Shown piece after piece: positions 40,582 to 44,755 of a DNA stretch of 64,000 nt. The translations under genes were made by a program, and so were the position numbers. The stretch's first letter is position 1; each line of letters starts with the position of its first letter. The notes under the pieces were generated by a model that was given only the letters and a program-made list of their open reading frames with translations, was not told where the DNA came from and searched no databases. Source of the DNA: Alphaproteobacteria bacterium (GTDB lineage: Bacteria > Pseudomonadota > Alphaproteobacteria > Bin95); assembly GCA_963665325.3 (NCBI GenBank), contig OZ224045.1, positions 1,664,001-1,728,000 on the forward strand, written 5' to 3'.

Positions 40582-42636
40582 ATGGCAGCATCGGGCGTCG
40601 ATCCAATTACCCTGGAAGTCGTGACCGAAGGGCTGATCGCGATCGTGAGGGAAATGCGGGCGACCATCATCCGGGCGTCCTATTCGTCCGTGATCCATGA
40701 GTTCGACGACTTCTCCTGTGCGCTCTTCGATGCGGACGGCCAAATGGTGGCGCAGTCGTGGGACCATCCGGGCCATGTCCTGCCTTTGCCATGGGGTGTG
40801 GGCTGTGCGCTCGAGGACTTTCGGGACGACCTGAAGCCCGGCGATGCGGTGCTGTTGAACGATCCCTATCGCGGCGGCACCCATCTCAACGATGTCACAC
40901 TGCTCTTTCCGGTGTTCGATGACAGCGGAGCCCTGATGGTCTTTCCGGCGGTCCGGGCCCACTGGGTCGATGTCGGCGGCATGGTGCCGGGCAGCTATTC
41001 GGGTCTTTCGACCAATATCTACCAGGAAGGCGTGCGGATTCCGCCGATCAAGATCGTCGAGGAAGGGCGGGTCAATCGCGCCGCGATGACGCTGCTGATG
41101 GCGAACATGCGGGTACCGGAGGAACGTGAAGGCGACCTCAATGCCTCTTTCGGAGCGTGCAGGATCGCCGAACAGCGCATCCGGCGGCTTTACGCCAAGT
41201 ATGGCGGCGACTGTGTGAAAGATTGCATCGGGACCCATCTCGACCGCACCGAACGACGCCTGCGTGAGCGGATTGCCGAACTGCCGGACGGTGACTACTG
41301 CTATGAGGACTATCTGGAATACTTCAATGAGGGCCGCCTCGACCCGGTGTTGATGCGTCTCAGGCTGACGGTATCGGGCGACCGGATGATCGCGGATTTC
41401 GCGGGCACCAACCCGCAGGTTCCGGGGGTGGTGAACTCGTCCCTCGCGGTTACCGGCGCCGGCGTTTTCGTGGCGATAAAGGCGACGCTCGACCCTGGCG
41501 GGGCGGTCAACCAGGGCGCCTTCAGGCCTATCGAGCTGCGCGCGCCGGAGGCGTCCATCGCCGATGTTCGCCACGACGCGCCGGCGGGCGCTCACGGCGA
41601 GGTTCGCAAACGCGCCGTCTCGGTCACGCTGGGCGCCCTGTCGCAGATCGTCCCGGACCGGGTCTCGGGGGATCTCTGCGGCACCTCGTTTCCCAATGCC
41701 ATCGGCGGGTTCAACAAGAGGCGAGACCGGCAATATGTCTATTACGAGGCCCCGGCCGGCGGGAACGGGGGATTCCTGCAGCATGACGGCCCGAGCGCCA
41801 TGGTTAACGTCGACTTCGGCAACCTGCCCTCGGTGCAGACCGCCGAGTCCATCGAAAACGAGATGCCGCTGCTGGTAGAGCGTTGCGAGCTGCGCACCGA
41901 TTCCGGAGGGCCGGGCGCCAGCCGCGGCGGGCTCGGCATGCGCCGCGAGGTGCGCCTGCTGGATGACGAGGGCAGTTACTCGGTGCTCAGCGACCGGGCC
42001 GTGATTCCTCCCTTCGGCGTCCTCGGTGGCGGCAGCGCGGCACCCTACATCGTCTCGGTGGTCCGCGACGGCGTGGAAACCGGTTTCTCTACACCGGGCA
42101 AGGTAACGGGCCATGCGATTCGCCGCGATGACACCGTGGTCATGCGTTCGGCCGGGGGCGGCGGTTACGGTGACCCACTGACCCGCAATCCGGTTTCGGT
42201 TCGCCGGGACGTCTCCGAGGGCCTCGTCAGCCGGACCTGTGCAGCCGATGTTTACGGGGTCGTGCTCGACGATGACGGGGAGGTCGACACCGCGGCAAGC
42301 GATGCCGCGCGAGAGGCGCTCGCGGCGGCCCGCTACCGGGCCCGGGTTGTGGCCGACGATGCCCACGATCCCTATGTCGGTATCAGGGGACGGCGCCGGA
42401 CGGTTCGGTTGTCGCCGGCGATGGCGGCCCGGATCGGGGTCGCCAACGACGATCTGACCGAGCTGATGGGCGCCAACCCGGCGCCGCTTCGCGCCTGGGT
42501 CGCGGTCGATGCCGACCATGTCGAGGACACCGTCATGCTCGATCCGTTCGGCCGCAAGGCGCTCGGCGTCGATCATGGCGACACGGTGGTCCTGAGGGCT
42601 GTGCCCACGCCCGAGGTCCCCGGAGGGCTTGCCTGA
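40582..42636 (+). CDS. Hydantoinase/oxoprolinase subunit B (HyuB-like) with C-terminal extension
   Basis: DFSCALFD, NDPYRGGTHLND, HWVDVGG, YQEG, DSGGPG..RGG, GGGGYGDP. Confidence 0.92.
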   Translation: MAASGVDPITLEVVTEGLIAIVREMRATIIRASYSSVIHEFDDFSCALFDADGQMVAQSWDHPGHVLPLPWGVGCALEDFRDDLKPGDAVLLNDPYRGGTHLNDVTLLFPVFDDSGALMVFPAVRAHWVDVGGMVPGSYSGLSTNIYQEGVRIPPIKIVEEGRVNRAAMTLLMANMRVPEEREGDLNASFGACRIAEQRIRRLYAKYGGDCVKDCIGTHLDRTERRLRERIAELPDGDYCYEDYLEYFNEGRLDPVLMRLRLTVSGDRMIADFAGTNPQVPGVVNSSLAVTGAGVFVAIKATLDPGGAVNQGAFRPIELRAPEASIADVRHDAPAGAHGEVRKRAVSVTLGALSQIVPDRVSGDLCGTSFPNAIGGFNKRRDRQYVYYEAPAGGNGGFLQHDGPSAMVNVDFGNLPSVQTAESIENEMPLLVERCELRTDSGGPGASRGGLGMRREVRLLDDEGSYSVLSDRAVIPPFGVLGGGSAAPYIVSVVRDGVETGFSTPGKVTGHAIRRDDTVVMRSAGGGGYGDPLTRNPVSVRRDVSEGLVSRTCAADVYGVVLDDDGEVDTAASDAAREALAAARYRARVVADDAHDPYVGIRGRRRTVRLSPAMAARIGVANDDLTELMGANPAPLRAWVAVDADHVEDTVMLDPFGRKALGVDHGDTVVLRAVPTPEVPGGLA

Positions 42637-42821
42637 TACCGGCGGTCGTCGATCGGAACCGATGGCGGCCGGGACGGCGCGGCCGGGCTGCGGGACCTCC
42701 GGCGAGATGTCATGAGCACCCACCCGCGCGGGGCGTGGGCCCTGTCGCGCAAGTAACGGGGCCTTGTGGCCTTGGCGGCGGTGTTGTGATTTGAGGTCGG
42801 TCTGGGGAATGGAGGCCGGAG

Positions 42822-42975
42822 AATCACTGGTGTGCATGTAGCGCCCGTTCATGAGCTTGGCCCGAACCACGATCGGCTTCTGTCACTGATGGCGCGGTTC
42901 GCCGCGACCTCGTTCGAGAGATTGGGCATTGTTGCGTGGTTCTTCCCCGTCCGCACCGGCACACAAAATGGGGAC
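42822..42975 (+). ncRNA. Candidate IS110 bridge RNA
   Basis: Two parallel loops, GTTCATGAGC-TTGG..GATCGGCT-TC and GTTCGAGAGA-TTGG..GTGGTTCT-TC. The second matches the predicted circle junction ACTCGAGAGAATCAC. Confidence 0.65.
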
Positions 42976-42979
42976 CAGC

Positions 42980-44356
42980 ATGGCGCGCAAGACCGGGAAG
43001 AGGCAGCGGTTGAGGGTTGTGAACCCGGATTGCGCCGGGATCGACATCGGTAAGGACCGTCACTTCGTGGCCGTCGATCCGGCGCGCACTTCGGACCCGG
43101 TCCGGGCGTTCGGCGGCTTCACCTGCGATCTGCGGGCGATGGCGGACTGGCTTTCGTCGTGCGGCGTGACGAAGGTGGCGATGGAGTCGACCTCGGTTTA
43201 CTGGATCCCGGTCTACGAGGTGCTGGAACGCGCCGGCTTCGAGGTGCTCCTGGTGCCCCCGCGGATGACGAAGCAGATTGCCGGTCGCAAGAGCGACGTG
43301 CTCGATTGCCAGTGGATCTGGCAGCTTCTGTCCTACGGGTTGCTGCGGGGCGCCTTCCGTCCTGGCGATGCGGTCTGCCCGCTTCGCTCCTATGTGCGCC
43401 AGATGAAGCGCCTGACTGAAGACCGCTCGCGCTGCGTGCAGCACATGCAGAAGGCGCTGACCGAGATGAATGTCCGGCTGGACTCGGCGATCGCCGACAT
43501 CACGGGGCAGACCGGCATGAAGATCCTGCGGGCGATCGTCGACGGCGAACGCGACCCGCAGCGCCTGGCATCGTTCCGGCACCGGCGGATCAAGGCCAGC
43601 GCGGACACAATCGCCGCGAGCCTGGAAGGCACCTGGCGCGAGGAGCATCTCTTCGCCCTGGAGCAGGCCGTGCAGCGCTATGACTTCCTCGACCGGCAGA
43701 TCGAGGACTGCGAGGCGCGGATCGCGGAGCAGATCGACGATCTGACGCCACCGGACGGGCCGGGCGGCGGTGACGCATCCCACGAAACACTCCGCGCGGT
43801 CGGCCCCATGACCGACAAGGCGTTGACCGTGGCCCTGACCGCCATGATGGGCACCGACCTGACCGCGATCCCGACCATCGGTCCCGGAACCGCTCTGACG
43901 ATCGCTTCCGAGATCGGCCCGGACTTCTCCGCCTTCCCTTCCGCCCAACACTTCTGCTCCTGGCTGGGGGTGGCGCCGGGCACCAGGATCAGCGGCGGCA
44001 AGCCTTTGCCGGGCCGGACGCACAAGGTGGTCAACCCGGTCGGACAGGCCCTGCGCATGGCAGCCATGTCGGCACGAAGGAGCCAGACCTTCATCGGCGC
44101 CAAACATCGCGCCCGGCTCGCCCGAAAGGACACTCCCGTCGCGATAACCGCGACCGCCCGCGAACTGGCTTGCCTGATCTATCTGATAGTGACGCGGGGT
44201 GAGCAATATGTCGAAAAAGGCATGCAAGCCTACGAAAAACGGCGCATCGACCGTTCCCTCGCCAACCTGCGGCGCAAGGCTCGAACCCTCGGCTACCAAC
44301 TGATCCACCCCGCCCAGGACATGCAAGCGCCCGATGGTGATAGGGCCATGGCGTGA
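42980..44356 (+). CDS. IS110 DEDD recombinase/transposase
   Basis: AGIDIGK, AMESTSVYW, RKSDVLDC (DEDD); C-terminal IPTIG..FCSWLGVAP..SGGK. Confidence 0.93.
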   Translation: MARKTGKRQRLRVVNPDCAGIDIGKDRHFVAVDPARTSDPVRAFGGFTCDLRAMADWLSSCGVTKVAMESTSVYWIPVYEVLERAGFEVLLVPPRMTKQIAGRKSDVLDCQWIWQLLSYGLLRGAFRPGDAVCPLRSYVRQMKRLTEDRSRCVQHMQKALTEMNVRLDSAIADITGQTGMKILRAIVDGERDPQRLASFRHRRIKASADTIAASLEGTWREEHLFALEQAVQRYDFLDRQIEDCEARIAEQIDDLTPPDGPGGGDASHETLRAVGPMTDKALTVALTAMMGTDLTAIPTIGPGTALTIASEIGPDFSAFPSAQHFCSWLGVAPGTRISGGKPLPGRTHKVVNPVGQALRMAAMSARRSQTFIGAKHRARLARKDTPVAITATARELACLIYLIVTRGEQYVEKGMQAYEKRRIDRSLANLRRKARTLGYQLIHPAQDMQAPDGDRAMA

Positions 44357-44374
44357 GCGTTAGTTACTCGAGAG

Positions 44375-44755
44375 AGATGTCATGTTCTGTCATGATCGGC
44401 ATGCGCAGGGCACATGTGCTGCGGTGTGTTTCGGCATAAGGCAGCCCTCCCCGCGCTCGTCGCCCGGGCCTCGCGGCTCTTGCGTCTGTCTGCATCCGGC
44501 CCATCGTGCCCTCATTCCGTTTCGTTCCCTTTCGTTCCAATCTTCCTTCCGCCGGCGCCGCTGCGGTGGAACCCCAATTCGCGCGTATCGCATGTGCGCG
44601 GGCGCGCATGTCGGCGCCGGCGCGGTTCGCGCGCCTGATTGCGCCTGCGCGCGAAGCAAACGCAAGGCGCACGTCTCCCGTGGGTTTCAAGAGGTTTTTT
44701 TCGCGCCGGCGCCGACGCAGAAGGCATGGCGGCCTCCGGATGCCGCCTCCTTCCC
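44375..44755. other. Structured non-coding element (candidate ncRNA or MITE-like repeat)
   Basis: Perfect 15-bp inverted pair 44610-44624/44702-44716; nested 9-bp pair 44626-44634/44647-44655; hairpin 44728-44747; repeated TGTCATG. No credible ORF. Confidence 0.5.

Follow-up and report, generated by a model that had tools for sequence, protein, structure and literature searches.

Does the long left end of an IS110-family insertion sequence, found in an alphaproteobacterial genome, encode an RNA that directs the insertion of the element, and can the guides, the core and the ends of the element be read from the DNA? Bridge recombinases are under development as programmable DNA-insertion tools, and their mechanism is known almost wholly from IS621 and its close relatives. 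An earlier note on this locus had proposed a bridge RNA with four guides and a GAG core. The locus lies in a 64,000-nucleotide stretch of DNA, which is called the window here. The insertion sequence occupies 42717-44374 of the window and is 1658 bp long, with the right-hand core AG counted in. We consider it likely, with good confidence, that this element encodes a bridge RNA of about 150-180 nt within its 263-nt left end, and that this RNA would direct the insertion site of a DEDD/serine recombinase. The earlier observation is confirmed in part and its interpretation is supported in part, with the family and two of its four guides correct.

The element, its ends and its insertion target

The element comprises the 263-nt left end, the transposase gene and a right end of 18 nt (44357-44374). 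The coordinates of all features are collected in Table 1. The gene product matches the Pfam families DEDD_Tnp_IS110 (PF01548, 8.7e-22) and Transposase_20 (PF02371, 5.3e-14), and both the N-terminal DEDD RuvC-like domain and the C-terminal Tnp domain are present. It also matches the NCBIfam model NF033542, named 'IS110 family RNA-guided transposase', with 282 bits against a cut-off of 140. The element belongs to the IS110 family, as the earlier note had said. The sole relative of the transposase with a solved structure is the IS621 transposase (8wt6), which is distant (E 1.4e-5). In a low-scoring alignment to 8wt6_A, GID is aligned with GID, AMEST with CIEAT, and the Ser of RISGG with the Ser of YES-G, and the last two acidic residues are outside the aligned stretches.

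The ends of the element were placed with the help of a second copy in the same genome, which is 99% identical and spans window positions 42708-44415. On the left side, the alignment of the two genomic copies shows identity from TGTCATGAGCACCCACCC onward and different flanks upstream of it. On the right side, the two copies are identical through ACTCGAGAGA and then continue as TGTCATGATC[G/C]GCATGCG, which is similar but non-identical; here the window copy has one AG more and one TGTCATG box more than the second copy. The left end is at 42717 (CACCCACCC...), 102 nt upstream of 42819. This placement is based on the second-copy alignments and on 13 head-to-tail junctions in homologues, at which the right end is joined directly to the same left-end start. 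The earlier note had put the left end at 42819, with a circle junction of ACTCGA-GAG-AATCAC. That placement does not hold, since the second copy shares 42708-42818 too, and the string AGAATCAC, read as a donor match, falls with it; this string overlaps a hypervariable 7-mer. For genome annotation, this means that guide-like matches within a single copy cannot fix the ends of IS110 elements, for which either another copy or an empty site is required.

Table 1. Positions of the element, its RNA features and its target site in the window
Feature	Position	Strand	Basis
Left target half: TGTCATG box 1 (42708-42714), ending ...TCATG, and core AG (42715-42716)	42703..42716	+	Flank of the two copies diverges upstream of TGTCATG; same as left target guide TCATGAG
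Insertion sequence, IS110 family	42717..44374	+	Second copy 99% identical, junction alignments, empty sites
GC-rich left terminus (CACCCACCCGCGCGGGGCGTGGGCC...), right donor side	42717..42751	+	Start C..CCACC..CGCG kept in homologues; 20-nt solo remnant at another TGTCATG site
Subterminal inverted repeat, left copy AGTAAC	42752..42757	+	Complementary to GTTACT 44363-44368; covaries
Predicted bridge RNA core fold, outer helix GTCTGGG (42800-06) / CCCCGTC (42945-51)	42800..42951	+	RNAalifold and covariation; RNA contig over 42763-42943
Predicted target-binding arm: helix GGCC 42814-17 / GGCC 42859-62 around both target guides, and hairpin 42828-34 / 42842-47	42814..42862	+	Helices 1 and 2
Proposed right target guide GAGAATC, hypervariable 7-mer; last C would pair with core G	42819..42825	+	Permutation test, column scan
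Left target guide TCATG-AG, and one base (C) that is the same as the first base of the element	42849..42856	+	Homologue covariation
Predicted donor-binding arm: long-range helix GAACCAC 42864-70 / GTGGTTC 42936-42	42864..42942	+	Helix 3 compensatory changes
Left donor guide TCGAG-AG	42914..42920	+	Same as right end 44368-44374; covaries in homologues
IS110-family RNA-guided transposase gene, 458 aa	42980..44356	+	Pfam, NCBIfam, distant match to 8wt6
Subterminal inverted repeat, right copy GTTACT	44363..44368	+	Homologue register
Right end: left donor ACTCGAG and core AG	44366..44374	+	Junction alignment, homologues
Extra AG (44375-76, not in second copy), then right target half: A and TGTCATG boxes 2 and 3 (44378-84, 44388-94)	44375..44394	+	Junction alignment

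The insertion site lies between two TGTCATG boxes, as TGTCATG-AG-ATGTCATG, in a dispersed repeat with a period of 10 bp. The places in the genome that resemble the flanks of the element are empty sites with two to four TGTCATG boxes spaced by exactly 10 bp. The 5.58-Mb genome has 83 such arrays (49 double, 32 triple and 2 quadruple), and the pattern TGTCATGNNNTGTCATG has 169 matches in it against 0 for the reversed control. Sites with the exact sequence TGTCATGAG followed directly by ATGTCATG are found unoccupied at three places, occupied at two, and once with a remnant. The TGTCATG array is the insertion target of the element. The earlier note had predicted a target near GTTCAT-GAG-CCGATC; the observed site reads TGTCATG-AG-ATGTCATG, and no site in the genome reads GTTCATGAGCCGATC. 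Because the genome has only two copies of the element, yet at least three perfect empty sites, current activity of the element is unproven. A search of Rfam gave no match to the TGTCATG repeat in the window copy.

The spacers of the TGTCATG arrays in this genome are mostly TTT, AAA or AAG (for example L003 1520-1590, L005 1510-1560 and L004 1640-1700). The arrays often have ..CCTCC.. before them, and ATCCGCATGCG and C/U-rich stretches such as CCTCCATCGCGTTTCGTTCC after them. The repeat itself may serve as an array of operators or a promoter, or may be a small mobile element. One site in the same genome (L004 1500-1535; C1, ~97145-97199) carries TGTCATGAG and ~20 nt from the start of the left end (CACCCACCCCCGCGAGGCC), to which the repeat unit is joined straight away with its downstream part. 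The solo remnant looks like the deletion scar of an earlier copy.

Two kinds of junctions were noted among the homologues. Tandem copies joined as right end-AG-left end account for the 13 head-to-tail junctions (L023, L024, L029, L030, L032 and others). In L059, L035 and L041 the left flank is the DNA that encodes the target guide of another copy (CACCCG and the guide). The own RNA region of L059 and of L035 resumes on the far side, as expected from nested self-insertion; for L041 no right junction is recorded.

Fold and expression of the left-end RNA

Homologous loci were collected from species genomes (74 loci, 61-98% protein identity) and from metagenomes (80 loci, 44-84%), the collections listing 80 of 507 and 80 of 552 confirmed relatives. 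A profile of the left-end RNA matched 114 of 156 loci and gave 62 distinct versions. Three short segments were taken from 125 RNA matches and were then sought at the junctions. After collapsing, there were 53 families, with 41 distinct target guides, 18 donor guides and 47 versions of the hypervariable 7-mer.

The fold was predicted with RNAalifold from 21 versions of the RNA, and pairs were counted on 32 versions. Over the five inner helices (26 pairs in 32 sequences), 98.3% of the cells are paired and 12 pairs have double changes; none of 500 shuffles reaches any of these measures, and slid controls give 30-45%. Every cell of helix 1 is paired and three of its four pairs have compensatory changes. 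Helix 3 has compensatory changes in four of seven pairs, one of which is AU in 17 sequences, GC in 11 and CG in one. Invariant G-U pairs fit the + strand as the transcribed, folding strand. The pair counts show that the predicted fold of the left-end RNA is a three-way junction, made up of an outer helix and two arms, one for the target and one for the donor. In the multiloop of the donor arm, the left donor guide would be accompanied by two hairpins (42873-76/42886-89 and 42891-95/42904-09). The left end carries a structured, conserved RNA, and in this the covarying helices agree with the bridge RNA of the earlier note. No Rfam family was found for 42400-44700 at E values up to 1.

Parts of the window are represented in public RNA runs, and RNA contigs over the left end were found in two size-fractionated metatranscriptome runs of one study. 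One covers 42763-42943 at a depth of 137.6 and has sequencing adapter immediately 5' of 42763; another covers 42707-42924 at a depth of 63.9. Contigs over the ORF have a depth of ~20-30 in the same two runs. These contigs represent relatives that are 90-99% identical, carry neither strand nor true ends and may include DNA carry-over; their depths hint that the left-end RNA is abundant. In runs X16 and X17, the left end was uncovered and just low-depth ORF contigs were seen. Neither a sigma-70-type promoter nor a terminator was found in 42600-43050, and no circle junction was seen among the RNA contigs.

A different part of the element also stands out in the RNA data. A stretch of 68 nt in the 3' part of the transposase ORF (44176-44243) forms a short contig of its own, with adapters on both sides, in runs X15 and X18. 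Its depth of ~400 is far above that of the remainder of the element. Either a stable fragment or a small RNA could account for it.

Guides, core and guide order

The four strings that the earlier note had read as guides are indeed present: GTTCATGAGC at 42847-42856, GATCGGCT at 42871-42878, GTTCGAGAGA at 42912-42921 and GTGGTTCT at 42936-42943. Covariation between guides and DNA in the homologues (53 families) bears out both left guides and goes against both of the claimed right guides. In the window, TCATGAG (42849-55), the left target guide, has the same sequence as the left flank and core at 42710-16. The corresponding 7-mer follows CACCCG(T) in the RNA of the homologues, and its match in the flank is found 60-170 nt upstream of the hypervariable 7-mer, with the conserved left-end start straight after the match. 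Similarly, GTTCGAGAG in the left donor guide matches the right end, and the donor-guide 7-mer follows GACCTCG(T) and occurs in versions such as TCGGGAG, TTGAGAG, ATGAAAG, AGAATAG and others.

Of the 46 families whose flank is long enough, 34 have the exact target-guide 7-mer in the left flank, and guides of other families gave matches in 6 of 1885 trials (0.3%). The exact donor-guide 7-mer is present just downstream of the stop codon in 31 of 36 families, and non-cognate trials gave 22 matches in 1207. The junctions used in the flank and per-cell analyses were found by searching with the guides, which makes counts of guide matches at those junctions partly circular and the strong per-cell scores of the two left guides circular. 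Independent checks on the guides are the non-cognate control, the comparison of the two copies in the same genome, and the 13 tandem junctions.

Both guides end in AG in all 53 families. Before this AG, a G stands in 24 of the 53 target guides and in 47 of the 53 donor guides. Because AG alone is invariant across the families, the shared core is AG, and GAG is a trait of the window copy; the 3-nt GAG core of the earlier note is one base too long. The base that comes after the target guide (42856) agrees with the element's first base (42717) in 38 of 45 pairs of RNA and left end, and the agreement is seen as C/C, A/A, T/T and G/G. The base after that agrees in 15 of 45. The match at the first base may reflect a handshake-like contact.

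The AG core is repeated at some right junctions. Tracts of (AG)n of variable length, with 1 to at least 15 extra units, are found between the right end and the flank in 17 of 91 homologue right junctions. They are seen at 44375-44376 of the window and in L063, L065, L066, L069, L070, L013, L016 and L071. The length of the tract varies among copies of one element, the window copy having one AG more than its sister copy. This suggests that the register slips on the repeated core in the course of recombination: such slippage would be made possible by the second AG of the donor (GAGAG), and (AG)n tracts could then grow at right junctions.

A candidate for the right target guide is the hypervariable 7-mer that follows GAGGCCG, which has 47 versions among the 53 families and ends with C in all 53. 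Over 73 unique pairs of 7-mer and right flank, contiguous pairing has a mean of 1.37 against 0.64 +/- 0.11, and 3.07 of 6 positions are paired against 2.44 +/- 0.12, values that 0 of 2000 permutations reach in either case. In a scan of all RNA columns against the right flank, the best score (z 5.8) falls on the predicted register of the 7-mer. Exact 5-mers in this register are seen in L008, L142 and L134. Across the homologues, right-flank positions 1-4 pair with the 7-mer in only ~50-60% of cases. Per-cell covariation with the right flanks gave no cell above z 4, and the signal appears only on summing five to six positions. In the window copies, the 7-mer predicts G+ATTCTC and the actual flank is G+ATGTCA, with which three pairs (G+AT) and one wobble after the mismatch fit. 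We therefore propose GAGAATC (42819-25) as a putative right target guide, on a signal that is modest across the homologues and weak for the window copy.

Other partners of the 7-mer were tried and rejected. Its pairing with 42936-43 is not conserved in homologues, and no covariation links it to the left target guide, as families that share one of the two differ in the other. Matches of 6-mers from the 7-mer elsewhere in the loci show just a mild excess near the right junction.

Because the 7-mer that covaries with the right flank lies 5' of the left target guide, the two target guides would be in the opposite order to those of IS621. An alternative is that the IS621 order is kept, with the conserved GATCGGCU at 42871-78 as a right target guide that reads only the core and C or CCG, and with the 7-mer as a fast-evolving loop whose correlation with the flank is indirect. 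This is unlikely. The CU of GGCU is complementary to the core AG, some right flanks do start with C or CCG (CCGATTG in L014, CCGGGCG in L016 and in L074), and the pairing signal of the 7-mer is modest. However, 42871-78 scarcely varies among families with unrelated right flanks and scores z 2.2-3.2 in the same unbiased scan in which the 7-mer scores 5.8. In the fold it is part of the donor arm, outside the target arm and the covarying helix at the base of that arm. The local hairpin that the IS621 order requires after the left target guide is 81% paired, a value that 244 of 500 shuffles equal, and has no covariation support. The right flank of the window copy (ATGTCA) does not fit 42871-78 either. 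The same near-constancy, scan position and place in the donor arm tell against the right target guide GATCGGCT that the earlier note had put at these positions, and the proposed reading of the 7-mer as the right target guide is kept.

On the donor side, no right donor guide was found when 7-nt and 5-nt complementary windows were compared with AG and the left-end start, or in antidiagonal permutation scans in both senses. No column or register was consistent in these scans, and the per-cell matches to the left-end start were scattered, as expected from clade effects. The earlier note had assigned this role to GTGGTTCT. Its GTGGTTC (42936-42) is a conserved, covarying strand of the helix with GAACCAC, and the complementarity of GTGGTTCT with AGAATCAC, present in the window sequence, is not kept in homologues. 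A subterminal inverted repeat is found instead near both ends. Its register is the same in most of 38 families, with a distance of 5-7 nt to the right end and of 33-38 nt to the left end, and its sequence varies (AGTAAC, AGTAAAA, GGAACA, CAAACA, AAGAAACT). The repeat is 6 bp long in the window and 5-10 bp in the 38 families.

It is very improbable that the left-end RNA is a mere leader that regulates the transposase, with guide matches that arise from a resemblance of ends and targets. The RNA does stop ~30 nt upstream of the start codon, and small RNAs have been proposed, in the part of the ISPpu9 literature covered here, to modulate the expression of the ISPpu9 recombinase. Against a mere leader, 41 distinct target guides follow 41 different left flanks with a non-cognate match rate of 0.3%, guide and flank are ~130 nt apart and have no other similarity, and the protein matches an NCBI model that is named RNA-guided. 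Scarcely credible at all is the full model of the earlier note, an element from the GAG at 42819 to the GAG at 44372-74 with GTGGTTCT and GATCGGCT as right donor and right target guides: its strings exist and are complementary in the window, and GATCGGCT after the left target guide recalls the IS621 layout as far as that is described in the text used here, but 42708-42818 is also common to the second copy, tandem junctions of homologues begin at the C..CCACC end, GTGGTTC pairs with GAACCAC through compensatory changes, AGAATCAC shares positions with the 7-mer (47 versions among the 53 families) and GTGGTTC is constant, and the occupied and empty genomic sites read TGTCATGAG joined to ATGTCATG, none of them GTTCATGAGCCGATC.

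A bridge RNA that directs insertion would work as follows. TCATGAG, which is the 3' strand of the target-arm loop, carries the left flank and AG in sequence and would be able to base-pair to the bottom strand. Its counterpart in the donor arm, TCGAGAG, carries the sequence of the right end and the same AG core. By analogy with the biochemistry of IS621, the element would be excised to a circle with the junction ACTCGAG-AG-CACCCAC, that is, ACTCGAGAG (located at 44366-44374) joined to CACCCACC. Circle and target would then form a synapse on one RNA, and strands would be exchanged at the AG core.

Comparison with known bridge RNA systems

IS621 of E. coli is the closest point of reference, and it is compared here through the portions of two papers (Durrant et al. 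2024, PMC11208160; Hiraizumi et al. 2024, PMC11208158). Both systems have DEDD RuvC-like and Tnp domains, a short right end and, upstream of the gene, a long left end that encodes the RNA. In both, a single RNA has target-binding and donor-binding parts, the left guides are in the sense of left flank and core and of right end and core, target and donor have a common 2-nt core, and insertion occurs into a repeated intergenic sequence. The differences are several. The protein similarity is low (E 1.4e-5 to 8wt6). The core is AG here, in 53 of 53 families, and CT in IS621. The RNA is predicted to form a three-way junction with a long-range helix here, and IS621 has two successive simple internal loops. 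The top-strand target guide would lie 5' of the bottom-strand guide here, whereas the 5' side of IS621 reads the bottom strand, and the proposed top-strand guide would read just one base of the core. Finally, the donor arm here would be a multiloop, and a right donor guide was not recognised in the scans.

Some of these traits have precedents. The text of Durrant et al. (PMC11208160) that was drawn on reports that cores were reprogrammed and that CT boundaries were only 'prioritized', so a non-CT core is not new in itself. It also describes the bridge RNAs of IS110 elements as structurally diverse, with multiloop donor binding in many IS1111 orthologues. According to the portion used of Siddiquee et al. 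2024 (PMC11187229), the target-strand regions of the IS1111-type seekRNA are reversed in order relative to the IS110 type. The present element resembles these IS1111-type elements in its proposed target-guide order, reversed relative to IS621, and in the presence of subterminal inverted repeats. It differs from them, as they are described there, in that its RNA is upstream, in the left end, and its right end has 18 nt, whereas the IS1111 RNA is in a long right end, downstream. The inverted repeat here is short and asymmetric (5-7 nt from the right end and 33-38 from the left), and its 6 bp (5-10 bp in homologues) compare with the 7-17 bp quoted for IS1111 in Durrant et al. (PMC11208160). ISPpu9 and ISPpu10 of Pseudomonas putida (PMC12288879; bioRxiv 10.64898/2026.03.19.712850) are likewise of the IS110 family and insert into copies of a repeated intergenic sequence. 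Compared by description in the parts of these sources that were used, the target there is the REP palindrome, and here it is the TGTCATG array with its 10-bp period.

A left-end-encoded RNA with reversed target guides was not described in the text of the literature searched, and the available text of three further preprints (10.1101/2024.06.21.599552, 10.1101/2025.10.25.684509 and 10.64898/2026.08.14.744561) does not describe the present RNA layout. A structure of this sort may already be on record in Durrant et al., in Fig. 6d and the supplementary tables. We suggest tentatively, and with clear reservations, that the element and its ~50 sampled relatives could be an undescribed class of bridge RNA. 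Such a class would be encoded in the left end, with reversed target guides, a three-way junction with a donor multiloop, an AG core of which only the G is read by the top-strand guide, and a match at the base after the target guide (38 of 45). It would recognise the left-end donor possibly through the asymmetric inverted repeat and protein contacts and not through an RNA guide.

The value of this lineage is that two left guides can be read from sequence, that its core is AG, and that its loop order and fold are unlike those of IS621. If the layout is confirmed, guide layout would be variable among left-end-encoded systems, the range of accessible core sequences would widen, and there would be a natural case for donor recognition with no obvious right donor guide. 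We rate the system as one of the known IS110 bridge-RNA kind in a variant architecture, and not as a new kind.
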